Positions 7,096 through 22,786 of a stretch of DNA of 32,000 bases are shown here, piece after piece. The notes below the pieces were generated by a model. That model was not told the DNA's origin, did no database searches, and saw only the letters and a list, made by a program, of their open reading frames with translations. Made by a program: the position numbers and the translations under genes. Numbering within the stretch: position 1 is the stretch's first letter; the number at the start of each line of letters is the position of its first letter. This stretch comes from Promethearchaeota archaeon (GTDB lineage Archaea > Asgardarchaeota > Hermodarchaeia > Hermodarchaeales > Hermodarchaeaceae): NCBI GenBank assembly GCA_048938295.1, contig JBHLMI010000016.1:24625-56624 (forward strand), read 5' to 3'.

Positions 7096-8475
7096 TTACT
7101 TTACTTTCAGATCTTCGAGAGCATCAGATACGATTTGGAGTCCTTGGTTGACTAATGTCTTTACTCGGGTTTCAGTTTTTGCTTCTGCAAAGACACGAAA
7201 GATAGGTTCTGTTCCAGAGGGGCGGAGAAGAACCCAACCATCGGTGTATCGAAATTTGATTCCATCGATGGTGCTGCACTCCGCTTCTGAGGGGGCATAT
7301 CCTTTGATGAGCTCAAGGAGGTCCTCTTTCTCCTGATGACTGCAGTGAACGCTCTCTTTAACTTGATGATAAGTGGGAAATTGGCGATCTAGCTCTTCCA
7401 GAGATTTGTCTTCTAGCTCCATTAGTTCGAGAATCTTTAGTGCGGTAAGCATCCCCTCTCGGGCCCAAGACCAGCCGCGATAAATAACTCCCCCATTTTC
7501 TTCACCCCCAATCACCGCATTTTTTGCTTTCATTGCCTGGACTATAAATGGTTCACCGACCCGCGTTTCGACTATCTCTGCATCAACGAGGCGAGCAACT
7601 TCGTGGATGATATCGCTGGTCGCAACTTGTGTTACGATACGCTTTGGCTTCTCCTGTAGGTCTCGAAGCGAATGATATGCTGCTAGTGCGAAGACGCGAT
7701 CACCCATAAGGTATCGACCTTGATCTGTGATGAAGATGATTCGGTCGGCATCACCATCCCAGGCAATCCCCACATCGAGTTCATTCTTTTTAACGGTCTG
7801 AATTAATTCTTGGAGATTCGCTTCTTTTGGCTCTGGTAGCCGGTTAGAAAAAAGACCATCAGGCTCGCAGTAAAGAAGCTTGGTCCGCACCTCTATCGCA
7901 TTCAACAGGGCAGGAACAACCATCGCCGCTGCGCCTCCACCACAATCAGCAGCAACATGGAACTGCCGTTTAATCAGACGTTGTCCATCAACCTGCTCGA
8001 GCAAGGCTTCGATATACTGCAACCTGAAATCCTCAGAGGGGACGAGACGGCCGCAAGCCTGCCATTCACGTAAGGATCTGTCTTCAGCAAAATAGTAGTC
8101 TTCAACTGCATGTCCCATTTCTACCGTAAAGGATGCGCCATCTGGGCCCCATAATTTAATGCCATTGTATTCTGGTGGGTTATGACTTGCTGTAATCATT
8201 ACCCCCCCATCCAATTTGAGTCGTGGAATGGCATAAGCTAACAGTGGTGTGGGAACCAGACCAAGAATATGAACATTACAACCTCCCCCCATCAAGCCAG
8301 CACTAAAAGCAAATCCAAGCATTTCACTGGATTGTCGCGAATCCCAACCTAGACCGATGGTCTTCTGTCCTTCAAGATAATCTGCTAGTGCATGGCCCAC
8401 ATCATGTGCAACTGTTGCCGTGAGTTCTTTATTGACGATGCCACGGAATCCTTGGGTCCCAAACAATCGGGTCAA
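7096..8475 (-). CDS. Alpha-D-phosphohexomutase #1 (archaeal PGM/PMM-like)
   Basis: LFGTQGFRG, ITASHNPPEYNGIK, DGDADR, GGEENGG, RPSGTEP. Confidence 0.92.
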   Translation of the reverse strand: MTRLFGTQGFRGIVNKELTATVAHDVGHALADYLEGQKTIGLGWDSRQSSEMLGFAFSAGLMGGGCNVHILGLVPTPLLAYAIPRLKLDGGVMITASHNPPEYNGIKLWGPDGASFTVEMGHAVEDYYFAEDRSLREWQACGRLVPSEDFRLQYIEALLEQVDGQRLIKRQFHVAADCGGGAAAMVVPALLNAIEVRTKLLYCEPDGLFSNRLPEPKEANLQELIQTVKKNELDVGIAWDGDADRIIFITDQGRYLMGDRVFALAAYHSLRDLQEKPKRIVTQVATSDIIHEVARLVDAEIVETRVGEPFIVQAMKAKNAVIGGEENGGVIYRGWSWAREGMLTALKILELMELEDKSLEELDRQFPTYHQVKESVHCSHQEKEDLLELIKGYAPSEAECSTIDGIKFRYTDGWVLLRPSGTEPIFRVFAEAKTETRVKTLVNQGLQIVSDALEDLKVK

Positions 8476-8553
8476 CGGAGTCTCCTCTTGTAATCATCAA
8501 CCCTACCTGCAAAGGTATTAATCTGTGGGCTAGCTCAGTTCCGCTATATCCAA

Positions 8554-9264
8554 CTAAAACATATTCGGGGAAATGTTTTGGCGGGATACAAGTGATCGCG
8601 TCTCTTCAATGTGAGTTCCGATTTCTTTGCGGATCACTTCGATACGATCCGCCTCAAGATAAGGCTCCATGGTCCATAGGAGCAATCCAGTATAGAGTTC
8701 CTTTGGATCTATGAGTTCCTCAATATTCCGGATTGTTTTCAATCGAAACAGGTACTCGTCCTCGTACATGCAGACTATTTCACAAAGCTTCCGGCTAAGG
8801 GCATCGACGTTTTCAACCAATTGATGAATCCGTGGTTCATTGCTTCCCTCAGAGCTGAGCAGATTGCCTCCACGGCGTTGCAACTCAGAGACCCGTTTTT
8901 CCATTAACCGCATTTTTCTGATCGAGCTTTCAAAATCAGATGCTAGGGCTAACAACTTGGGGAGCACCTTATCGAGGAGTCCCATGTTTTTGGTGATAGC
9001 TCGATCGATGATACCCTCAAAAGAAGTGAGTTTTCCAAGATCCTCGATATTACGAAGGTAATTGATTTTGGATAATGAGCCAAGGATGACTCGAATGGGT
9101 CGAAGTGAACTGCGGTGTGCTGATTCCCACCGATTCATGGCGTCGTCCAGACCTCCCGTGACTTCCCGCATTGAGCGCCCGAACTCACGGATGACCGCAG
9201 CAAGATGGTCTTCATCCATTGATTGAGAATTCCCTAAGGAATCTGCAGACTTAACGACCCGCAT
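8554..9264 (-). CDS. All-helical protein, candidate CINP/C1orf109(AIRIM)-like
   Basis: Long clean ORF; ATG at 9264 follows AAGGTGG (the ORF track starts at 9273). Motifs MNRWESAHR, LTSFEGIIDRAITKNM, MYEDEYLFRLK, DPKEL, LLLWTMEPYLE resemble eukaryotic CINP/C1orf109 as I recall them. Confidence 0.6.
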   Translation of the reverse strand: MRVVKSADSLGNSQSMDEDHLAAVIREFGRSMREVTGGLDDAMNRWESAHRSSLRPIRVILGSLSKINYLRNIEDLGKLTSFEGIIDRAITKNMGLLDKVLPKLLALASDFESSIRKMRLMEKRVSELQRRGGNLLSSEGSNEPRIHQLVENVDALSRKLCEIVCMYEDEYLFRLKTIRNIEELIDPKELYTGLLLWTMEPYLEADRIEVIRKEIGTHIEETRSLVSRQNISPNMF

Positions 9265-9328
9265 CCTAACCACCTTAGAGTAGTCGGCGAATTTAACTTC
9301 TTTGCTTTGTGCATTGTAGAAAAAACCA

Positions 9329-9358
9329 CGCTATAAAAAGGGCTTTTTAAGCATAGCG
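9329..9358. promoter_or_regulatory. Overlapping back-to-back (bidirectional) BRE/TATA promoter
   Basis: TAAAAAG-GG-CTTTTTA inverted repeat (9334-9349) flanked by CGCTA/TAGCG; gives TTTTTAAG on + and TTTTTATAG on -, between divergent genes. Confidence 0.55.
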
Positions 9359-9396
9359 ATATGATGTAAGACGCAGCTCTTGAATGAGGTTTCGAC

Positions 9397-10776
9397 ATGA
9401 CATGGACGCCCTGCTTCGGCACTAGCGGTATTCGTGGCTCTGTCCCCGATGAACTCAATCCTAGGGTTGCTTGGCAAATTGGCTATAGCGTTGCCACGGT
9501 TTTCAACCGGGCACCTCTGTTGGTCTGCCATGATAACCGTACAAGCAGCCCATTGCTGACAAATGCCATCGTTAGTGGATTAATGGCAGGAGGATCTGAC
9601 GCTCTTTATGGAGGTGAAGTCATCACACCAGCTGTGAGCCTGTATCTCCGCTACTGTGATTTGGCGGGGGCAATACTAATCACCGGGAGTCATATTCCCG
9701 CTCATATGTCTGGGATTGAAGTACTCAGCCATGATGGCGCGCCAGTCGCACATGATGTTGAATTGCAGATCGAAGCGCTCAATGTGTCGAAAGCCACACC
9801 TGTGAATTGGCGAAACCATGGACGGCTTCGACAAGTAACCGATGTAGGCTCCTTTTGGATTAAAAAGGTCGTAGCACAAGTGGATGCAGATCTCATTGCC
9901 AGACGAAAATTTCGCGTTGTTGTCGATGCTGCAAATGGAACAGCCATCCCCTGGCTGCTAGATGCCATCAAACAACTGGGTTGTACTGTCATTGGGCTTA
10001 ACACCGAACGGGATCCCATGTTTCCCGGTCGGTCCCCGAATTTACGGGTTAACTTATTGGAACAAGCGGTTCAGTTGGTGAAACAACATAAGGCGGATTT
10101 GGGTGTCGCCGTTGATGGTGATGCTGACCGTGCATTTTTCGTCGACGATAAAGGACGGGCAATCATGGGGGATGTTTCTGGCACACTACTGGCTCAAATC
10201 GAATTGACCCGTGAAGGGGGAGGCACCATCGTCACACCCATCAATTCTAGTAACCTCGTTGAAGATGTCGTTGGACAATTCAAAGCTCGCATCGTATATA
10301 GCCGCATAGGACCACCAGCGATAGTGGCGGCCATCAAGAAGTATAACGCACTATTTGCTTTTGAGGAATCTGGTAAAATCATCTACCCCCACCTCAACTA
10401 CCTTTCAGATAGTGGTCTTGGCACTGCCTATCTGTTGGAGCATTTAGCAAAAACCGAAAAGCCACTAAGTGAGATTATTGATACATTCCCCAAGTATACC
10501 CAATTGAAACGCGCAATTGATTGCCCGAATGGTCTCAAAGAAGCTGTTAGCTTGCATGCACTTGAAATGGTGAGAAAAGATTATCCCAATGTGCAAGTCA
10601 ATACCGTAGATGGAGTCAAAGTCATTTTCGATGATGGCTGGTTGCTGCTTCGTCCCTCCGGTACAGAACCAGTCTTTCGCTGCTTTGCAGAATCCCGTCA
10701 GGAAAAACGAGCTCAGGAACTCCTTGCACTCGGGCTCGATTGGATTGGAGATGTACTCAAATCTGCTGCTTCATAA
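9397..10776 (+). CDS. Alpha-D-phosphohexomutase #2 (divergent specificity)
   Basis: FGTSGIRG, variant ITGSHIPAHMSGIE, DGDADR, AFEESGK, RPSGTEP; GAGGT SD. Confidence 0.9.
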   Translation: MTWTPCFGTSGIRGSVPDELNPRVAWQIGYSVATVFNRAPLLVCHDNRTSSPLLTNAIVSGLMAGGSDALYGGEVITPAVSLYLRYCDLAGAILITGSHIPAHMSGIEVLSHDGAPVAHDVELQIEALNVSKATPVNWRNHGRLRQVTDVGSFWIKKVVAQVDADLIARRKFRVVVDAANGTAIPWLLDAIKQLGCTVIGLNTERDPMFPGRSPNLRVNLLEQAVQLVKQHKADLGVAVDGDADRAFFVDDKGRAIMGDVSGTLLAQIELTREGGGTIVTPINSSNLVEDVVGQFKARIVYSRIGPPAIVAAIKKYNALFAFEESGKIIYPHLNYLSDSGLGTAYLLEHLAKTEKPLSEIIDTFPKYTQLKRAIDCPNGLKEAVSLHALEMVRKDYPNVQVNTVDGVKVIFDDGWLLLRPSGTEPVFRCFAESRQEKRAQELLALGLDWIGDVLKSAAS

Positions 10777-10803
10777 TATAGCGACATTAAATGGAGAAAT
10801 ATC

Positions 10804-12207
10804 ATGTCTTCAACACAATCCTTGTTTGGAAGCTCAGGTATCCGGGGAAAAGTCAATGAGTTCATCACCGGTCCATTGGCTATCCAAATTGGTCTAGCTA
10901 CCGCAGACTATCTACGAGCTTTAGAGAAGCATCCACAGATTATGGTGGGGCATGATCATCGGACTACTGGTCCGATGCTGACTTCGGCGTTAATGGCAGG
11001 CCTTCTTGAGGGGGGAGTTACAGTTACAAAAACCGAGATGGCACCCACACCCTCCATTGCCTATGCGGCGGGAAAAAAGGGCATGCACGCATCGATAATT
11101 GTGACCGCGAGTCACAACCCTCCCGAATACAATGGTTTCAAATTTCACAATCCCGATGGGGCTGGCTTCTCAGCGACCCAACAGGATGAACTCGAAAAGC
11201 GGATTACGAAAGTTGAACCCGTAGATTGGACGCATTTCACTGATTTTACTTCGGTTGAAGTCATCCCACATCACCTCGATGCTATAGTGAATGCCTGCGA
11301 TGTGAATAGGTCATACAATGTTGTTATAGACGGCGCACTCGGCGTCGGAAGCCTGGTCACCCCCCCAGCACTTCAACAACTACACGCAAGCGTCAAACCC
11401 CTTAATGCTCCCCCCGATGGGCAGGAATATGCACACCATTGCCACCCATCAAAGATACAAAGTGCCGCAGCAGCGGAATGGCAGCATTTTGTACATCTTG
11501 ATAATCTCAGCGAAATCGTCACCTCAACTAAAGCACACGTCGGAATCGCCCATGATGGCGATGCAGACCGCGTTTTAGCAGTCGATGATAAAGGACGAGT
11601 TCTAGCAGGGGATATCCTCTTGGCATTAGTGGCAGACTACTACCTCGCTACCCGGGGAGGTAAGGTCATTGCCACTACCGTGTCAAGCTCGAGCATCGTC
11701 GATCATGTTGCAAAGCATCATGGTGCACGGGTTGAGCGGTCCCGTGTTGGTGATGTGTTTGTTTCCAATCTAGTCAAAGAACATCAAGCCGTGATGGGTG
11801 CCGAACCCTCTGGGCCTTTCATCTTCCCAGAGGTACATTATTGTCCTGATGGACCACTTGCTGCATGTAAGATACTTGAACTCCTCGAATGGGCAAACCG
11901 GTCCCTAAGTCAGCTCGTCGATGATCTACCATCAACCCATTTACTCAGAGCATCTGTAACTTGTCCCAACGAGAAAAAAGACACTGTGATGAAAGCAATC
12001 AAATCAGTATTCGAAGAACGGATGGACATCGAAGACGTGAACCAAATTGATGGTATTCGTGCCAGTTTCCATGACTCCAGCTGGGTGCTCATCAGACCAT
12101 CCGGTACAGAACCCGTCATCCGTGTCACAGTTGAAGCATTTTCAGCACAAAGGGCAAAGGACCTTCTCAAAGCTGCCCAACAGACGCTAAAACGGCAAAT
12201 CAGGTAA
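10804..12207 (+). CDS. glmM: Alpha-D-phosphohexomutase #3, probable phosphoglucosamine mutase
   Basis: FGSSGIRG, VTASHNPPEYNGFK, DGDADR, GAEPSG (close to the archaeal GlmM GEPSG loop), RPSGTEP; adjacent to glmU. Specificity is inferred. Confidence 0.75.
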   Translation: MSSTQSLFGSSGIRGKVNEFITGPLAIQIGLATADYLRALEKHPQIMVGHDHRTTGPMLTSALMAGLLEGGVTVTKTEMAPTPSIAYAAGKKGMHASIIVTASHNPPEYNGFKFHNPDGAGFSATQQDELEKRITKVEPVDWTHFTDFTSVEVIPHHLDAIVNACDVNRSYNVVIDGALGVGSLVTPPALQQLHASVKPLNAPPDGQEYAHHCHPSKIQSAAAAEWQHFVHLDNLSEIVTSTKAHVGIAHDGDADRVLAVDDKGRVLAGDILLALVADYYLATRGGKVIATTVSSSSIVDHVAKHHGARVERSRVGDVFVSNLVKEHQAVMGAEPSGPFIFPEVHYCPDGPLAACKILELLEWANRSLSQLVDDLPSTHLLRASVTCPNEKKDTVMKAIKSVFEERMDIEDVNQIDGIRASFHDSSWVLIRPSGTEPVIRVTVEAFSAQRAKDLLKAAQQTLKRQIR

Positions 12208-12212
12208 GGAGT

Positions 12213-13478
12213 CTAGTGTCGATCTTCTATTGTCGTTTGCTTGAGCTTAACATGCACATTGTCAGGTACATCCTTTTGGACAACAATCGAGGGATCAATC
12301 CATGAGTTATACCCAATAGTTCGACCTGGTAACACAACTGCTCCACAGCCGATTTTCGAAGCGTCCCCGATGACAGCGCCAAATTTGTCTGTATGTGTAG
12401 ACACTAATTGCCCTCCTAGCATTACCTGAACCTCTGAACCATCAAATCGGTAGTTAGCCAACACGACACTCGCCCCGATCTCTACATCAAAACCAAGGAT
12501 ACTATCACCAACAAAGGCGAGATGACCAATTCTACTTCCAGGTAACATCACGGTATTACGAACTTCACAGGAAAAGCCGGCTCGTGCTCCTTGATCGATC
12601 ACAACGTGATCACGAATTAAGCAATTGTTGCCCACAATGGCATTGGGACCGATATAAACGGGTCCCACTAAGGCTGCCCCAGGAAACACTCGGGCGTGCG
12701 ACCCTATCCACACATCTCCACTGAGATGTGCAGAATCACTAACTGTTGCGGTTGGATGAATGGAATCGCCTTTCTGTTGACGTAATCGGTCGAAGAGGAT
12801 GGGAGACGCCTCGAGGATATTCCAACTGCGTCCAACGTCAACCCAGGAATCCTTTGAATGGCTCCCGTGGACAGTATGCCCTTCGTCGATGAGTTTCTGA
12901 ATCCCCCCTTCCAAATCCTGAGTCTTTCGAAGCATGTCAAAGATTGCATTGGTGAAAACGTAGACTCCTGCTACGGCAAGATTACTTGGCTCCGTTCCCT
13001 TCTTTGGTTTCTCAACAATAGTTGTGATCTCAGTCCCTTCCAAAGCCACAACCCCAAACTGCCAAGGGTTCGGCACCTCAAACAATGATAAAGCCATATC
13101 GCTAGATTTGGCAGCTTCTACTGTCGCCTTGAAGCGTCTCGTTGTAGTGATGATGTCACAATCAGTCATTAGGAAACGGTCCTCGTCCGCTAGGCGATCT
13201 TCGGCGGCTAGGACTGCGTCGTATTCTCCTTTCGGTTCAGTCTGCTTTGAGTAGCTGATAGTAACTCCGAAGTCTTCCCCTTCACCAAAATACGCTTCAA
13301 TTTGCTCACAGAAGTGACCTACAACTAGCACAATGTCTTTCATACCCGCTTCGCGGACTGTATCAATCACATGGTGCAGCATCGGTTTGCCAAGAAGCGG
13401 TATCATGGCCTTTGGTCGATGCTGAGTCAAAGGATGTAATCTTGTGCCATACCCAGCCGCGAGAATTAGTGCCTTCAA
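12213..13478 (-). CDS. glmU: Bifunctional sugar-1-phosphate nucleotidylyltransferase/acetyltransferase (archaeal GlmU-type)
   Basis: KALILAAGYGTRLHPLTQHRPK, EKP, WVDVGR, C-terminal hexapeptide repeats. TTG at 13478 lies 2 nt after the cysS stop. Confidence 0.88.
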   Translation of the reverse strand: MKALILAAGYGTRLHPLTQHRPKAMIPLLGKPMLHHVIDTVREAGMKDIVLVVGHFCEQIEAYFGEGEDFGVTISYSKQTEPKGEYDAVLAAEDRLADEDRFLMTDCDIITTTRRFKATVEAAKSSDMALSLFEVPNPWQFGVVALEGTEITTIVEKPKKGTEPSNLAVAGVYVFTNAIFDMLRKTQDLEGGIQKLIDEGHTVHGSHSKDSWVDVGRSWNILEASPILFDRLRQQKGDSIHPTATVSDSAHLSGDVWIGSHARVFPGAALVGPVYIGPNAIVGNNCLIRDHVVIDQGARAGFSCEVRNTVMLPGSRIGHLAFVGDSILGFDVEIGASVVLANYRFDGSEVQVMLGGQLVSTHTDKFGAVIGDASKIGCGAVVLPGRTIGYNSWIDPSIVVQKDVPDNVHVKLKQTTIEDRH

Positions 13479-13480
13479 TC

Positions 13481-14935
13481 TTATTCCCACTTCCATACGG
13501 TTCCGGTCTTTTCGTCTTCTAAGATAATACCCAAGTCCTTGAGTTGATTACGGACCTGGTCCGCTGTTTTGAAATCTTTTTGTTTGCGAGCTTGATCCCG
13601 AATTTGAATTAGCAGCCTCACTAATCCGTCAACCATTCGGTCATCGTCTGCACTTGACCGCATCCGTTCACGGTATAGCCCTAACACCTCACCAACAGCA
13701 TCAAGACTTGTGAAGATTTTTTCTAACGTCCCTGCAGTCACCGATTGATTCCCTGCTACCATACTATTCATTGTAGTCAGGAATTTATTCAGGCTAGCGA
13801 GGGTTTCAGGGGTATTGAAATCATCATCCATAGCTGAATCAAATTCATGCTCGAAAGTGGATAGCGCGTCCCACAGCTTGGTATCTGCCTCCGATGGCTT
13901 CCTCGGATTCTTTGTTTCCTCCATCCGGGCTTCGCGAAGCCGGTGCTGAAGAAGATCGATTGAGTTGTGAATTCGTGCCAACCGAGCCTTTGCTTCCTCA
14001 AGCTGAGCATCACTGAAATCAACTGGGCTTCGATAATGTGATGAAATGAGGAATAAGCGAACGATCTCTGGATCATATTTCGCCGTAATTTCTTGGATGG
14101 TGAAAAAGTTCCCCAACGATTTGGACATCTTCTCGCGATTCACCGTTAAGAAACCATTATGCATCCAATACCGAACGAAGGGTTGACCCGCTAAGGCCTC
14201 AGATTGAGCAATCTCATTTTCATGATGGGGGAATACCAAATCAAGGCCACCCCCATGAATATCAATGGGGTAGCCTAGATACTTAGTCGACATGACCGAA
14301 CATTCAATATGCCAGCCTGGGCGACCTTTTCCCCACGGAGAGTCCCAACTCGGTTCACCTGGCTTCATAGCTTTCCATAACGCAAAGTCCTCTGGATGCT
14401 CTTTCTCTTCGATCACTCCGGCATCCTGATCTTCCTGCTCAAATGGCGTCTCCTCCCCCTTGTCCCGACGTGATAGGCGACCGTATTGTTTGAACTTTGA
14501 TACCCGGAAATACACGCTACCATTTGCCTCGTAGGCAACCCCTTTCGCGATTAATTTGTTGATGTGTTCAATCATCTCTTGGATGTGCTCGGTAGCCTTC
14601 GGATAAGCGGTGGCACGTTTCACAAACAGCTTATCAAAATCCTCAAAATACTCGTGGATATACTTCGCTGCTAACTTGGCCGTGGTCGTGTTCTGCTCTT
14701 GTGCACGATTTATCATCTTATCATCGATATCCGTGAAGTTTTGGATAAAGCGCATATCATAGCCCTTATACTCCAGATAACGTCGAATTACATCAAAGGC
14801 CACAATTGATCGCGCATGGCCCAAATGTGCTGAATCATACACCGTGGGTCCACAGACATACATGCGAATCTCGCCCTCATGTAGAGGTTTGAAGGGCTCT
14901 TTCTTCCGTGAGAGCGTATTGTATACCTGTAACAT
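13481..14935 (-). CDS. cysS: Cysteinyl-tRNA synthetase
   Basis: YVCGPTVYD, HLGH, GRPGWHIECS, DIHGGGLDLVFPHHENE, KMSKS. ATG at 14935. Confidence 0.98.
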   Translation of the reverse strand: MLQVYNTLSRKKEPFKPLHEGEIRMYVCGPTVYDSAHLGHARSIVAFDVIRRYLEYKGYDMRFIQNFTDIDDKMINRAQEQNTTTAKLAAKYIHEYFEDFDKLFVKRATAYPKATEHIQEMIEHINKLIAKGVAYEANGSVYFRVSKFKQYGRLSRRDKGEETPFEQEDQDAGVIEEKEHPEDFALWKAMKPGEPSWDSPWGKGRPGWHIECSVMSTKYLGYPIDIHGGGLDLVFPHHENEIAQSEALAGQPFVRYWMHNGFLTVNREKMSKSLGNFFTIQEITAKYDPEIVRLFLISSHYRSPVDFSDAQLEEAKARLARIHNSIDLLQHRLREARMEETKNPRKPSEADTKLWDALSTFEHEFDSAMDDDFNTPETLASLNKFLTTMNSMVAGNQSVTAGTLEKIFTSLDAVGEVLGLYRERMRSSADDDRMVDGLVRLLIQIRDQARKQKDFKTADQVRNQLKDLGIILEDEKTGTVWKWE

Positions 14936-14982
14936 AGCGTCTCCCATCTGAATCAGCAGTGCACCCGGTATAAAATACTTTA

Positions 14983-16555: not shown

Positions 16556-16704
16556 AATTCACTCCACCGTACTAGAATAGATACACTTTGCCTTTCAATC
16601 CCTTATAGGCTATGCTCAGTCGCCTTGTTAACTCCTTAATCAGTTTATTATCATCCGCAATCTAGACAAATACTTAAGAACGCGTGTTTCGCGGCACTAG
16701 GTGG

Positions 16705-16790: not shown

Positions 16791-19700
16791 ATGCGGCGAA
16801 AACAGATCTTCTTATTGGTAGTAATGTCAATCCTGCTCTTTCCCCTCGTTCCTCTTGTTCCCTCTAACAAGGCAATATCACCTCACACCAGCACTTCGGA
16901 TGTGGAAACCGGAACCTCTCCGGATTCATTATTCAACAATCCCCTTGACACTTCATTGACTACACCTGAGTTTACTTTGCCAACCGGTATCTCTATTCCG
17001 GACAATCCTGTAGAAACCCCTGATATCCCAATCAGCCAATCTGGGGCTGGTTCAACTCGTCTTACACAATTAACATGGAATATATCACGGTCATTCAACA
17101 ATCGAAATGATGTTTCAGATTACACAGTCCATATCACTAAGGGCATGCTATATCATGATGAAAGCTACTTCACCCGCATCGGGGATATCCACTCAAATAA
17201 AGACTACATACTGGTTGAAGACCATGATCCCTTAGCCGGTTGGCGCTATTACTGGCCAATGGAAGAAAAGGCCTGGCCTGGTGAAGTCGTGTTTATGGCC
17301 TTTAATATTAGCGGGCTCTCCCCAATTGAGCTAACTGAATTTGTAATCTACCTCTATTCACCAAGTACTCCACCCAATCCTGTCTCTGGGGGTTGGTATA
17401 ATTATACTGTGTATGCTGCAGCCCCCAGTGGAACCTCGGGCTTGGGAACTATGCCAAATTTGGCTCAACGTATGGGACCTTGGATGCAGGAACTTGTTCC
17501 AGATATCCCAAGAGGGGATGAACTTTGGGTTCCGCTCCCCACTACCCCTATTATTTTGGATAGCGGAATGACTTATGCGAACACCTTCTACTTTGCCCTC
17601 ACAATGATGCCTGGTGCTGCTGCAAATTGGGCATTGATGGAGGATGTCGGAATTCCCCCCGATGGAGATGGTGATGATGAAGGTGATGCATGGTATTCCT
17701 ATCCTTGGCCAAGCCTTACTTTCTTCTCGGGTCCTTCGCATGATTTCTTCCTCGGACTTGCATTCACACGGTTCTTCTATCCCAGTGAGATAGGCATGGC
17801 TGTGAATGCTACTCCTGTGATGGACCAGTTTCCAACTCCTGGAATTGGTTTATGGGATGGTGGCTGGCATTCACCAGCCATCAATATGACGAATGCTGAC
17901 CGATATTATGACGTGTCATACAGCATGCCAGGTTTAACCTATGATGTAGATTGGCTTGGCTGGTTTTATGAACTAGTATATGCTGATTCGCACTGGACCG
18001 CGTACGTTTTCCAAGATTGGGTTGATTGGAACGTAAGCTTCTATGCTGAGTTTCCTGTTCTAGCGCTTGATCAGAGAATATTAGTTTCGATTGGGTCAGA
18101 TTGGACAGTGCTTTCTGTCCAATGCAATGGATTGAACCACTTGGACTGGTCATATCAATATTCTCCCACCACCGGATACTGGCTTGTCATTGATAACGCC
18201 CGAAGTGGACAATGGACCATCCTTTGCGATTCACCAGATTATATGGTAGATTCGGAAGTTCGGGATATGTCAAATCAGGTGATTACACAAGCCACAGGCG
18301 ACGATGACGTAACAGCCATAGGGTACGTTGAGGATCAATCCGGTCAAAACGCCACCAACGGATATGGCTATCTACTCGTTTACGATCCACGAGATGCCTT
18401 CAATACTTTTAATTTCAGTGCCCTTCCGATGCCTCCAGGTGGAATGGTCGAAATCAATTGGTCAATTTGGCTAACCTCCACATGGGCAGGCGTGTACACG
18501 CTCCATATCCTCTGGACAAATGGCAGTGAGGCAGGCCTGAATCTCCAAACTCTCGAAGTCTACATGCAAACTAATCTAAAAATCACCTATGAATTCCCTC
18601 CAGCTGGCGATCCCGTGATTCGCGGTGACGTGGTCCATATTGAAGTCTATTTTGACAACCAATGGGGATTCCCAATCTACGATGCTACAGTCACAATCAT
18701 TAATGACAGCAGTGGATTAGAATGGGGGCTTGGCCCAGGCGACACCAAAATTGATTATGAGTATATCAACTGGGAAGAACAAGGCTTTCCCGGATACTAC
18801 ACAGCACTCCTCTTTACTGAAAATGCCTCTCTTGGAGTTTTACACAATATCACAATGCAGCTCTCCTCGCCCTATAATCAGGATCAGAGTGTGACAAAAC
18901 AATTCGAGGTAAAGAGCCGGGCAACTCATATCGTGTTCTTCTGGGAAGGGCAACCACTTCCAGGATTGAATAATATCTCGGATATTTGGTTTACTGATCC
19001 TCACCCCTACATCAACGATACATCTTTACAGTTCACTATTCGTTATACCGATGATTTTGGTCTACCCATTACTGGAGCTCAAATTACCCCGTATCTCGTT
19101 CACGAGACGCAGGGGGTCTACAAACGGCTTGATTGGGTTGACCTATATCTTATTGACTCAACTAAACCAGGCTTCTATAATATCACCATCGATACCAATC
19201 CAATAGCTGGCAGAGCCTTTCACGAAGGTGATCCAGCCTATATTGTCATTTATGCAAGTAAGTTTGGCTACGAATCAACCTGGTCAGACACAATCGATGT
19301 CTTACCCCAACCTCGACCTTCCCGCATCGATGTGCCACTCGAATTTCAAGAAATCACATTATACCACGATTGGACTTATCCCACAAGTGGGCATCCTAAC
19401 ATTCTCCGTGTTATTCTCCGTGATGCCATAAACAGTGAAGACCTGAGTCATGGAACAGTAAAAGCTAGTGTAGGTGGGTTACCAAACATCACCCTCATTT
19501 TAGCAACTCCCGGACTTGGGCTTTATGAAATTGAAAATATCACAACAGCAGGATTACTACCTGGGGTCTATAACATCACACTCTATGCTGAAGCACGAGA
19601 TTTCGTTGAAACAGTAACCTATGTCCAACTGACAATCCTTCCCAAACAGACAATCGGGTATACCATCGATTCGAACTTCGAAGAATTACAAATGCCTAAT

Positions 19701-20870
19701 TATGGTTTGGAGTGGTGGATCTCTCTTCAGCTTTATCTTGAAAATCCTCCTGGTTTCAAGAACTCGGATTCAATTTTTGGAGTTAGTCGCCAACCAGGAG
19801 TAAGCTTCATACCTAGTGGTGTTAAGGTCATTTTAACCATTACCGCACAGAGTGGAAATTATGCCCCGATAGAGGGAACTGTTGGCGAAGATGGAATGGT
19901 GCATTTTTCAGGGGACCTTATCCATGAAGGGGAACATAATTTCTACATAAGCCTAGAAGGTGCAGAGAATTATGCCACCATCACGAATATGGAGATCCAG
20001 CCCAGTAGCCAACCCGTTAGCGTTATGTCAATGACTTCTCTTATTACTCAAAATCTCCCAACAATTCTTATGCTGGTCGCCCTTATCACCATAATTCCAT
20101 TGGGTTCATTTCTAGCCTACCGGCGCTATTATCTCCTACCCAAACGCCAAGAAAAATTAGAGAAATACCAAACCATTGCAGATACTTTCAGTGACGTAGC
20201 GAATCTTAATCGACTCCTCGTACTCCACAAAGAAAGCGGCATTTGCGTCTTTGATCCCTTCGCTGAAGAAAGCCAAGACGCAACGTTAGTAGCAGGATTT
20301 CTCCAAGCAATTTCCACCTTTGGACATGACCTAGGAGACAGTCAAGGGCTTGCAAATGGTTCAGATGAGGCACGTACCCTCCGCGAACTCCAATACGAAG
20401 GCTTTCGAATCCTCATCAACGATGCCCAGTTCATTCGTGTTGCTTTAGTTCTGAGTGGAACACCCAGTGAACAACTCCGAGGTCGACTCGAAACCTTCTC
20501 AGACGTCTTTGAGAAACGATATCAAGCTGACTTTGAGCAATGGGAGGGCCGCGTAGATCAGTTCAATGGCGCCTCAGACCTCGTTGAAGATGTCTTTCTA
20601 ATCTCACTACGCCACCCCCATAGTGTGACGCCAAGTAAACCTCGCGGAATCCAACTAACCTCAGTGGAATCCGATATTTACAGCCTTTCCAAAGAACTGA
20701 CCAAAGACCGAGAATACATCTTCCTTGGACAAATCCTAAGCACCTATCTCGCTGCAGCGAAAACCGATAAACTGGAAGCTTTAATGGGCATCTATCAGCT
20801 CCGAATGAAAGGTATATTCCAACCACTGCATATCATCCCCGCCCCAACAACTACTGCGTCAGCTGGCTAG
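16791..20870 (+). CDS. Giant type I membrane protein: beta-rich ectodomain, single TM, cytoplasmic longin-like and wHTH-like domains
   Basis: ATG at 16791 follows GGTGGA; signal peptide MRRKQIFLLVVMSILLFPLV; many N-x-S/T sequons; TM LPTILMLVALITIIPLGSFLAY-RR; tail LLVLHKESGICVF...LVAGFLQAISTFG...ELQYEGFRILI...LRGRLETFSDVFEKRY. Confidence 0.8.
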   Translation: MRRKQIFLLVVMSILLFPLVPLVPSNKAISPHTSTSDVETGTSPDSLFNNPLDTSLTTPEFTLPTGISIPDNPVETPDIPISQSGAGSTRLTQLTWNISRSFNNRNDVSDYTVHITKGMLYHDESYFTRIGDIHSNKDYILVEDHDPLAGWRYYWPMEEKAWPGEVVFMAFNISGLSPIELTEFVIYLYSPSTPPNPVSGGWYNYTVYAAAPSGTSGLGTMPNLAQRMGPWMQELVPDIPRGDELWVPLPTTPIILDSGMTYANTFYFALTMMPGAAANWALMEDVGIPPDGDGDDEGDAWYSYPWPSLTFFSGPSHDFFLGLAFTRFFYPSEIGMAVNATPVMDQFPTPGIGLWDGGWHSPAINMTNADRYYDVSYSMPGLTYDVDWLGWFYELVYADSHWTAYVFQDWVDWNVSFYAEFPVLALDQRILVSIGSDWTVLSVQCNGLNHLDWSYQYSPTTGYWLVIDNARSGQWTILCDSPDYMVDSEVRDMSNQVITQATGDDDVTAIGYVEDQSGQNATNGYGYLLVYDPRDAFNTFNFSALPMPPGGMVEINWSIWLTSTWAGVYTLHILWTNGSEAGLNLQTLEVYMQTNLKITYEFPPAGDPVIRGDVVHIEVYFDNQWGFPIYDATVTIINDSSGLEWGLGPGDTKIDYEYINWEEQGFPGYYTALLFTENASLGVLHNITMQLSSPYNQDQSVTKQFEVKSRATHIVFFWEGQPLPGLNNISDIWFTDPHPYINDTSLQFTIRYTDDFGLPITGAQITPYLVHETQGVYKRLDWVDLYLIDSTKPGFYNITIDTNPIAGRAFHEGDPAYIVIYASKFGYESTWSDTIDVLPQPRPSRIDVPLEFQEITLYHDWTYPTSGHPNILRVILRDAINSEDLSHGTVKASVGGLPNITLILATPGLGLYEIENITTAGLLPGVYNITLYAEARDFVETVTYVQLTILPKQTIGYTIDSNFEELQMPNYGLEWWISLQLYLENPPGFKNSDSIFGVSRQPGVSFIPSGVKVILTITAQSGNYAPIEGTVGEDGMVHFSGDLIHEGEHNFYISLEGAENYATITNMEIQPSSQPVSVMSMTSLITQNLPTILMLVALITIIPLGSFLAYRRYYLLPKRQEKLEKYQTIADTFSDVANLNRLLVLHKESGICVFDPFAEESQDATLVAGFLQAISTFGHDLGDSQGLANGSDEARTLRELQYEGFRILINDAQFIRVALVLSGTPSEQLRGRLETFSDVFEKRYQADFEQWEGRVDQFNGASDLVEDVFLISLRHPHSVTPSKPRGIQLTSVESDIYSLSKELTKDREYIFLGQILSTYLAAAKTDKLEALMGIYQLRMKGIFQPLHIIPAPTTTASAG

Positions 20871-20946: not shown

Positions 20947-21021
20947 TGGAGCCGAGGATGGGATTTGAACCCATATAGAACAGCTCTGCAGGCTGTCGCG
21001 TGGCCACTCCGCCACCTCGGC
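20947..21021 (-). tRNA. tRNA-Cys (GCA), intronless, CCA encoded
   Basis: GCCGAGG/CCTCGGC acceptor stem, ACAGC-CT GCA GA-GCTGT anticodon arm, ATGGG-TTCAAAT-CCCAT T arm, U73 discriminator then CCA. Confidence 0.97.
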
Positions 21022-22432: not shown

Positions 22433-22786
22433 ATGGAAGCTTTAATGCATGAGGGTCTGGTGACAACCTTGGCAAAAGATTCTGGTCTTGTGCTCGCAGG
22501 TACTGTCCTTTGCTTTATCGCATCAATTATTGCAGTCATCCTCGGTGTACTGGATTTAGTTGCTTTTGACCTCATCAGCGGTGTTATCTACCTCGGTCTC
22601 GGTCTAGTGTGTGTCATTTTCACCTTTCGTATCTATAAGCGGTACTTCCAAACCTATGCAATTCTGCTTCTGGTGTTTTCGATTATTTTCCTCGTCGCAG
22701 CATACCTTGTTCTTGGAACTTGGGGATATCTCGTCGGCATTCTCATGCTCATTGGAGTAATTCTACTCCTTGTTGCGAAAGCTTAA
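22433..22786 (+). CDS. Small membrane protein with about four TM helices, unknown function
   Basis: Four hydrophobic segments; follows apgM on the same strand. Start codon uncertain. Confidence 0.7.
   Translation: MEALMHEGLVTTLAKDSGLVLAGTVLCFIASIIAVILGVLDLVAFDLISGVIYLGLGLVCVIFTFRIYKRYFQTYAILLLVFSIIFLVAAYLVLGTWGYLVGILMLIGVILLLVAKA

Follow-up and report, generated by a model that had tools for sequence, protein, structure and literature searches.

What would an archaeal cell gain from placing a longin-like domain directly beneath a giant surface protein? This question is raised by a gene at 16791-20870 on the forward strand of a 32,000-nucleotide stretch of DNA (the window) from a Promethearchaeota archaeon (assembly GCA_048938295.1, contig JBHLMI010000016.1, positions 24,625 to 56,624). 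Its product, P0002, combines a large ectodomain with a single transmembrane helix and a tail that is predicted to fold into a longin domain and, after it, a winged helix. The transmembrane helix and tail together form a module that recurs in most sampled Asgard genomes. With a probability of roughly 0.45, P0002 is a type I receptor or adhesin whose membrane-tethered tail docks a cytoplasmic partner, for which small GTPases are the best candidates.

Architecture and topology

Positions 16791-20870 form a single open reading frame (ORF) of 1359 codons, as seen in the ORF listing and its translation, and encode a protein of 1359 amino acids (aa). Hydropathy identifies only two hydrophobic segments in P0002, at residues 4-26 and 1089-1110. 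The first follows the sequence MRRK at the N-terminus and has the appearance of a classic signal peptide, while the second is the transmembrane helix. An in-frame GTG further upstream, at 16701, was considered as the start and rejected: it would add 30 residues without signal-peptide features, and orthologs align from the ATG at 16791. The features that define this architecture are:

16791..20870, forward strand: whole gene, predicted type I single-pass surface glycoprotein P0002, 1359 aa (ORF, translation, orthologs and kept neighbourhood)
16791..16874, forward strand: signal peptide, residues 1-28 (MRRK n-region, hydrophobic segment 4-26, ortholog N-termini aligning here)
20055..20120, forward strand: transmembrane helix, residues 1089-1110 (hydropathy peak of 2.38; first part of one continuous AlphaFold2 helix)

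The orientation of the protein is supported by its composition. Asparagine-linked glycosylation sequons (N-x-S/T) are concentrated in the ectodomain, which holds 19 of the 20 and leaves one in the tail; shuffling of the ectodomain composition would lead one to expect 8.3 +/- 2.6. The ectodomain, of about 1060 residues, is acidic and contains only 3.6% lysine and arginine. The stretch right after the transmembrane helix is basic (YRRYYLLPKRQEK), and across 49 family members the median net charge of the juxtamembrane helix is +4. Because of this sequon bias, the low lysine and arginine content and the basic segment, P0002 is predicted to lie with its N-terminus and the ~1060-residue ectodomain outside the cell and its 250-residue tail in the cytoplasm. 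A signal peptide, one transmembrane helix, an outer N-terminus and an inner C-terminus amount to a type I single-pass arrangement as far as can be read from sequence alone.

The initial annotation had described a giant membrane protein with a transmembrane helix near 20055-20120, many sequons, an acidic DGDGDDEGD loop, repeated YNIT motifs and about 250 cytoplasmic residues. The reading frame is real, the helix maps exactly to those positions, the sequon excess holds up against shuffling, the loop is present at residues 291-299, and the predicted topology keeps the tail inside the cell. The YNIT motifs also exist, but "repeated" applies to two copies only (residues 796 and 927).

Fold of the cytoplasmic tail

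The input for AlphaFold2 was residues 1085-1359 together with an alignment of 49 divergent homologs. The resulting model, with a predicted local distance difference test score (pLDDT) of 88.6 and a predicted template modelling score (pTM) of 0.79, contains three parts:

20121..20204, forward strand: basic juxtamembrane helix, residues 1111-1138 (AlphaFold2; conserved A..F.D..N consensus)
20205..20612, forward strand: predicted longin domain, residues 1139-1274, with elements in the order b1-b2-a1-b3-b4-b5-a2-a3 (AlphaFold2, VIA-align and Foldseek)
20613..20846, forward strand: predicted winged-helix domain, residues 1275-1352 (AlphaFold2 of the domain alone, and VIA-align)

In this model the transmembrane helix runs unbroken into the juxtamembrane helix (model residues 5-54, pLDDT 90-95), which leads straight into the longin domain. 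The A..F.D..N consensus of the juxtamembrane helix is kept across the 49 divergent members. The modelled longin domain consists of a five-stranded antiparallel sheet (strands at model residues 55-62, 68-70, 113-118, 121-127 and 131-137) between helices (80-98, 143-165 and 172-190).

Solved structures point to the same fold. The best VIA-align match is the longin of a Lokiarchaeota Roadblock-Longin protein, 8yqg (Z 11.8-12.6, root-mean-square deviation 2.9-3.6 A, 130-133 residues), and it is followed by Fuzzy (Z 11.3-11.8), VAMP7 (11.2-11.3), Sec22b (11.2) and CCZ1/MON1 (10.5-10.9), with the longins of TRAPP, the sigma and mu subunits of AP complexes, SRX, MglB and the LAMTORs ranked below. Longin superpositions take in 119-133 aligned residues spanning model positions 49-192. 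When the top 1000 Foldseek chains were re-aligned, 198 reached Z>=8, essentially all of them longin or roadblock, and Foldseek searches of the Protein Data Bank (PDB) themselves returned Fuzzy, MON1/CCZ1, LAMTOR/MP1, zeta-COP, AP2 sigma, dynein LC7 and Asgard Roadblock3 (E ~1e-3, probability ~1.0).

The two related folds differ in the extent of their alignments. Those to longins run through both C-terminal helices (to model residue ~189), whereas those to roadblock proteins (Z 9.5-10.9) stop near residue 162, all within model residues 50-166. The Roadblock/LC7 fold has the order a1-b1-b2-a2-b3-b4-b5, with a helix at the N-terminus and no more than one at the C-terminus; the tail has the N-terminal juxtamembrane helix and carries two helices at its C-terminal end. 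Residues 1139-1274 are therefore best modelled as a longin domain to which a further helix has been added at the N-terminus.

The domain that follows was also folded alone. The last 87 residues gave a pLDDT of 91.8, with strands at 9-12 and 76-78 and helices at 24-36, 45-55 and 60-72. This H1-b-H2-H3-b wing pattern is that of a winged helix; the Z-scores are moderate and the arrangement is a common one, so the assignment, which rests on the model, is secure at the fold level only. No solved PDB chain aligns over the longin and winged-helix domains together. The initial annotation had proposed both a longin-like domain and a small helical, winged helix-turn-helix (wHTH)-like domain after it. 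The models and structural matches bear out both, and the motifs it quoted from the tail are all present, in the most conserved part of the protein.

One alternative reading is a membrane-tethered transcription regulator, in which this domain would bind DNA either at the membrane, as in ToxR and CadC, or after proteolysis, with the longin domain acting as sensor or dimeriser. The winged helix does match MecI (Z 7.0) as well as Fur/Zur/PerR and SarX, within a range of Z 5.5-7; the isoelectric point of the region has a family median of about 9.1, and soluble longin and winged-helix paralogs give weak matches to the HTH_47 family. However, the best match is the peptide-binding recognition element of TbtB for ribosomally synthesised and post-translationally modified peptides (RiPPs; Z 8.3 over 87 residues), and many of the other matches at Z 5.5-6.6 are protein-binding winged helices (cullin WHB, RPA32, ORC/Cdc6 and MCM, listed alongside Zur/Fur/PerR and SAMD1). 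The helical core of the target domain has a net charge of 0, the domain packs on the longin as one rigid unit (pTM 0.79), and at least four receptors per genome with nearly universal tails would be unusual for one-component regulators. Resemblance to a peptide-binding element and a core without net charge make a role in transcription highly unlikely.

Constraint and spread of the module

The tail is the part of P0002 that evolution has held most firmly. In a 28-sequence alignment of full-length orthologs, with identity counted against the target, the ectodomain reaches 0.44-0.50, the juxtamembrane helix 0.65, the longin domain 0.82 and the winged helix 0.77. Tail identity so far above that of the ectodomain argues for a conserved intracellular interaction.

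The module is also widespread. An exhaustive HMMER search with the transmembrane helix and tail as query found it in 931 representative clusters at E<=1e-3 and in 529 at E<=1e-10. In proteins of 250-3000 aa, the 255-residue match is found at the C-terminus or close to it, behind varied ectodomains. In a census of 151 genomes sampled from the same phylum (threshold E<=1e-10), the module was present in 137, including 71 of the 72 high-quality genomes, at 1-16 copies each. The transmembrane, longin and winged-helix module is thus an evolutionarily mobile unit that has been placed behind many ectodomains. The database names of the homologs are all "hypothetical protein".

Structure searches of the ESM Atlas give a similar picture, with Promethearchaeota clusters at template modelling scores of 0.76-0.79 over ~240 residues, as well as a 360-aa cluster that combines a longin domain with HTH_47. 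Weaker look-alikes (0.44-0.47) occur in Thermoplasmatota and bacteria; those of the longin part include a bacterial OmpA-family cluster with 6862 members, a Chloroflexota SH3_3 cluster and a Thermoplasmatota DUF11/CARDB cluster. Given these look-alikes, membrane-associated longin or roadblock-like tails may exist outside the Asgard archaea.

The genome of the target (G000) illustrates this spread. In what follows, C numbers denote its contigs, other G numbers the sampled Asgard genomes and L numbers individual loci. Four full modules, whose tails are 26-40% identical, and three soluble paralogs were found:

Contig C6: full module, the target, 1359 aa
Contig C50: full module, paralog, 921 aa
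Contig C9: full module, paralog, 740 aa
Contig C46: full module, paralog, at least 1399 aa, ending at the contig edge
Contig C4, L017:6977-7639, reverse strand: soluble longin and wHTH paralog
Contig C51, L018:6581-7231, forward strand: soluble longin and wHTH paralog
Contig C38, L014:6640-7332, reverse strand: soluble longin and wHTH paralog, Pfam HTH_47 match at E 1.5e-5

The soluble paralogs, of 216-230 aa, begin directly with the same longin motif and finish in a wHTH, and one paralog has a weak Pfam match to Fuz_longin_1 (E 0.0098). They could serve as heterodimer partners of the receptor tails. A split version of the system, with a surface giant adjoining a soluble longin and winged-helix partner, was looked for and rejected, as the paralogs on C4, C51 and C38 are not adjacent to surface proteins.

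A candidate partner: small GTPases

How might such a protein work? In the favoured reading, a lineage-specific extracellular head would sit on a stalk of probable Ig-like domains, which the transmembrane helix and a rigid, conserved juxtamembrane helix would join to the cytoplasmic longin and winged-helix domains. These would form a docking or regulatory platform directly under the membrane that recruits a cytoplasmic partner to the site where the ectodomain is engaged. The best partner class would be Ras-superfamily small GTPases, Rab-like or Rag-like, whose own roadblock or longin domains might pair with the tail. Binding of a partner by the tail, a GTPase as this partner and the passing inward of the state of the ectodomain are suppositions, whereas architecture, topology, both folds, the constraint on the tail and the spread of the module come from the analysis. 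A bolder form holds that these are phylum-wide Asgard transmembrane receptors in which a ligand or a cell contact at the variable ectodomain is carried through the rigid helix to a longin/winged-helix platform that directly recruits or switches Rab- or Rag-like GTPases at the plasma membrane; as a complete account this is doubtful.

Several observations favour a GTPase partner. Almost all of the closest solved structures belong to longin or roadblock GTPase regulators, adaptors and SNARE longins (Z 10-12.6), which counts towards this reading. Profile matches from the divergent-homolog alignment include longin domains encoded in the same ORF as a Ras-family GTPase domain (291-372 aa; at least four genomes, G038, G146, G001 and G006), and such fusions suggest that this branch of longins works with GTPases. 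In a Loki-like family, module genes encoding 1570-1870 aa are divergent from a gene of 367-399 aa that lies 0.6-1.1 kb away, in five of eight loci and four genera. One copy of this smaller gene (L020:7687-8793; receptor at L020:9917-14617) has Roadblock and Ras/Rab-like matches in Pfam, and another, in L024, has the Ras/Rab-like match only. In L021, a Ras-like gene of 193 aa lies 51 bp downstream of a receptor gene of 1318 aa, and the two are probably transcribed together. The C50 paralog of the target genome has a divergent Rab-like gene of 178 aa (L011:10083-10616) 0.8 kb away.

Two of these neighbourhoods have further features of their own. Within L011:10083-11569, the gene that comes 36 nt after the Rab-like gene beside the C50 receptor codes for 305 aa and carries a TackOD1 output domain (E 6e-23); the pair may be a small GTPase-output operon. 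A 20-kb region in another genome, G038:C1:3322375-3342712, contains matches to the longin profile in proteins of 1072, 331 and 966 aa, together with three Rag-like GTPase-fusion genes in tandem (316-340 aa) and one Ras-like gene of 177 aa, and may be a longin/GTPase island. A parallel to the CvnA-D conservons was also considered. DUF742 (CvnC) matches neither the target nor its paralogs, which leaves this parallel as an architectural analogy only.

A number of results weigh against the GTPase reading. SNAREs, coat adaptors and the signal recognition particle receptor make use of longin domains as well, and the same fold does not mean the same function. At the sequence level, the tail matches none of the Pfam longin or roadblock families (Longin, Fuz_longin_1, Robl_LC7 and others), and a profile of the divergent homologs against PDB sequences found none even at E<=10. 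More broadly, neither the whole protein nor the tail has a Pfam family at E<=0.1 or an NCBIfam match, which places it outside the curated longin and roadblock families. The genome contains 33 Ras-family and 14 roadblock matches, of which no Ras-family match lies on the target's 56.6-kb contig, while the sole roadblock match there is ~20 kb from the gene. Three orthologous loci contain no GTPase or roadblock gene either, so that a conserved neighbouring small-GTPase gene is lacking for the target on its own contig and in all three. Adjacency was counted under a criterion fixed beforehand (a Ras-family match within 6 kb of a longin-profile match in an ORF of at least 600 aa, in 10 genomes), and 7 of 30 loci qualified against 3.9 expected (Poisson P ~0.10), a weak excess. 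As GTPases are abundant (33 matches in 2.5 Mb), chance proximity is common. The weak adjacency agrees with the report that GTPase genes of MK-D1 generally lie outside operons with roadblock or longin genes (PMC10933270). Of the coupling of an outside cue to small GTPases that the initial annotation had proposed, the structural basis (longin, winged helix and topology) is borne out: the two results named there as refuting it, a tail of another fold or one placed outside the cell, were looked for and did not appear. The link to GTPases is an inference with indirect support, weak adjacency and a target locus without a GTPase.

A more specific possibility is that the tail is a catalytic guanine nucleotide exchange factor (GEF) or GTPase-activating protein (GAP), formed once it homo- or heterodimerises with another tail or with a soluble longin and winged-helix paralog, as in Mon1-Ccz1, TRAPP, NPRL2-NPRL3 or MglB. 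The first longins of Fuzzy, Mon1 and CCZ1 and the TRAPP longins are among the nearest folds (15-17% identity, Z 10-11.8), the top match 8yqg is a dimeric longin domain, and the soluble paralogs of this genome could pair with the tail. Nevertheless, where tri-longin RabGEFs have three longins in tandem, the tail has a single one, with a winged helix of 80 residues after it. The hairpin between b1 and b2 points the same way: its consensus in the 49-sequence alignment is LVLHKxSGxC, the basic position varies between K, R, H, E and S, and no proline follows the glycine. The arginine finger and GP motif of the folliculin/SMCR8/NPRL2 type are absent from this consensus, and the only arginine conserved at 80% or more is R1216, in b5. 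Without a conserved arginine in the hairpin, a GAP finger of the folliculin/NPRL2 type is unlikely, which also counts against the GTPase reading as a whole. Pfam and PDB searches give no sequence-level kinship to these enzymes. Prediction of two tail copies (residues 27-270 of the divergent-homolog alignment) gave scores of 0.22 and 0.19 against a mark of 0.42, which is evidence neither way. Overall, enzymatic activity of this kind seems quite unlikely.

Ectodomain

The part of P0002 that faces outwards has diverged much further. Its features are:

16971..18236, forward strand: head, residues ~61-482, containing the acidic loop (homology to the ectodomain of the C9 paralog)
17661..17687, forward strand: acidic loop DGDGDDEGD, residues 291-299, with a DxDxD pattern (ortholog consensus PDGDGxDEGDAY)
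18348..20030, forward strand: membrane-proximal stalk, residues ~520-1080, with both YNIT sequons (ESM-feature matches, internal repeat)

The head shares homology with the C9 ectodomain at 31% identity (E 2.6e-42), and weaker homology with that of C46; the ectodomain of C50 is unrelated. The acidic loop could be a Ca2+ binder. A weak lectin-like match of the head (score 0.80) is not relied on. Pfam gave no match for the ectodomain, a profile of the full-length orthologs found none among PDB sequences, a Pfam scan of 28 orthologs returned only weak single-member matches, and a homology search with residues 95-530 found only ortholog fragments.

The stalk is somewhat better characterised. Residues 520-1080 have language-model feature matches of 0.90-0.92 to archaeal Big_3_5, Big_1, MG2/MG4 and CarboxypepD_reg proteins, and residues 615-715 and 715-845 form an internal repeat (hhalign probability 85%, E 6e-6). 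The stalk probably consists of several Ig-like beta-sandwich domains. These feature matches and the repeat give indirect support to the beta-rich ectodomain described in the initial annotation.

The gene in its neighbourhood

Full-length orthologs, at 39-83% identity, occur in metagenome-assembled genomes labelled Thor-, Hermod-, Hod- and Promethearchaeota. Three orthologous loci (39-52% identity; L040, L041 and L042) keep the same housekeeping neighbours, with genes for a nitroreductase, cofD and cysS upstream and apgM, a 110-aa ORF and a PNP-family gene downstream. This shared synteny indicates that the target is a vertically inherited core gene of its lineage and not a mobile adhesin. No RNA dataset is listed for the gene, and only sediment-metagenome DNA runs contain its sequence.

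The composition of the ectodomain and the setting of the gene bring up another explanation, in which P0002 is a structural or adhesive glycoprotein of the unordered coat of Asgard cells. Its tail would not signal but would, for example, anchor it to the cytoskeleton, ESCRT or coat-like machinery, or sort it to protrusions or vesicles, much as longins do in SNAREs and in the sigma and mu subunits of AP adaptors. A sequon-rich ectodomain with a probable Ig-like stalk is as in adhesins, and the target is a syntenic core gene without signalling neighbours. The longin SNAREs (VAMP7, Sec22b and Ykt6) and the adaptor sigma and mu subunits score like GTPase regulators (Z 10-11.3). In addition, cultured Lokiarchaea have complex surface proteins, a single membrane and no S-layer (PMC9834061), and it is plausible that proteins like the target are part of this lokiarchaeal surface coat. 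On the other hand, the tail has no SNARE motif, no coat or ESCRT genes lie nearby, the conservation of the tail is far above what a passive anchor needs, and other genomes contain related longins in fusions or gene pairs with GTPases. A purely anchoring or sorting tail is unlikely, though a serious contender, and docking of a cytoplasmic partner, most plausibly a small GTPase, is preferred.

Other features of the window concern neighbouring genes. A tRNA-Cys (GCA) lies at 20947-21021 on the reverse strand, 77 nt past the stop codon of the target and opposite to it, and cysS is found at 13481-14947, ~6 kb upstream of the target. Directly after apgM, a 117-aa ORF without a Pfam match (22433-22786, forward strand) has counterparts of 110-115 aa at the same place in L040, L041 and L042, which makes a genuine, conserved small gene probable. 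The region 7096-13496 contains three phosphoglucomutase/phosphomannomutase paralogs and a GlmU-like nucleotidyltransferase/hexapeptide gene and is syntenic in distant orthologous loci; this cluster may supply nucleotide sugars for the glycosylation of surface proteins such as the target. Within it, a 239-aa protein encoded at 8554-9273 on the reverse strand has a weak C1orf109/CA109-like Pfam match (E 8e-4) and occurs at the same position in orthologous loci.

Relation to known longin and roadblock systems

Several known systems share parts of this architecture. The closest are the Lokiarchaeota Roadblock-Longin protein (8yqg) and the Asgard roadblock proteins (9jue, 7f8m and 7yh1; PMC10933270), which come from the same phylum and also have a five-stranded sheet with flanking helices. 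However, these are soluble, lack a transmembrane helix, ectodomain or winged helix, and have no detectable sequence similarity to the target.

Among eukaryotic regulators, Fuzzy-Inturned (CPLANE), Mon1-Ccz1, HPS1-HPS4 (BLOC-3) and TRAPP Bet5/Trs23 share the longin fold (Z 10-11.8, with 15-17% identity to the first longin). They are cytosolic tri-longin heterodimers or multisubunit complexes that are recruited peripherally, whereas the target has a single longin fused behind a transmembrane helix and followed by a winged helix. The GAP longins of folliculin, SMCR8 and NPRL2 also share the fold, but the arginine finger and GP motif of their b1-b2 hairpin, described as the defining features of GAP-type longins linked to Asgard archaea (PMC12290439), are not conserved in the target.

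The concept of a membrane platform that docks a small GTPase is shared with Ragulator (LAMTOR1-5)/Rag and with MglB/MglA (fold likeness at Z 9.5-10.4). Ragulator is anchored by lipidated LAMTOR1 and MglB by a basic patch, while the platform of the target belongs to a glycoprotein that crosses the membrane once and has a large ectodomain. Ragulator and MglB are also roadblock proteins, whereas the alignment of the target reaches two C-terminal helices typical of longins. The longin SNAREs VAMP7, Sec22b and Ykt6 are likewise membrane-tethered (Z 10.3-11.3), but their order is longin, SNARE motif and C-terminal transmembrane helix, with no ectodomain, in contrast to ectodomain, transmembrane helix, longin and winged helix without a SNARE motif.

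Asgard longin and roadblock proteins as such are already well known. For example, Liu et al. (10.1101/2020.10.19.343400) listed 130 roadblock-superfamily clusters of orthologous genes (asCOGs) in Asgard archaea, including NPRL2-like longins; in their description, a small C-terminal domain comes after the longin in both NPRL2 and NPRL3. Structures of Asgard roadblock proteins were determined by Tran et al. 2024 (PMC10933270). Neither PMC10933270 nor PMC12290439 uses the word "transmembrane", and full-text searches, whose coverage mostly excludes subscription journals, found no paper on a single-pass surface protein with a cytoplasmic longin. The receptor-like combination of a membrane-tethered longin with a winged helix has no name in Pfam or NCBIfam.

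Biological implications

Asgard genomes encode dozens of small GTPases together with roadblock and longin proteins, and the module offers a concrete, testable wiring point for them at the membrane. The tail of ~250 aa is highly conserved and confidently predicted, and the list of possible partners is finite. Should the bolder form of the reading be true, the receptor-to-GTPase signalling and cargo-coupled trafficking of eukaryotes would have a forerunner among prokaryotes, and it would be clear how Asgard GTPases without lipid anchors arrive at the membrane. Binding of GTPases by the tail would mean that these switches came under outside-in control before eukaryotes arose. Otherwise, the family would still amount to a large class, so far unannotated, among the surface glycoproteins observed on cultured Lokiarchaea.

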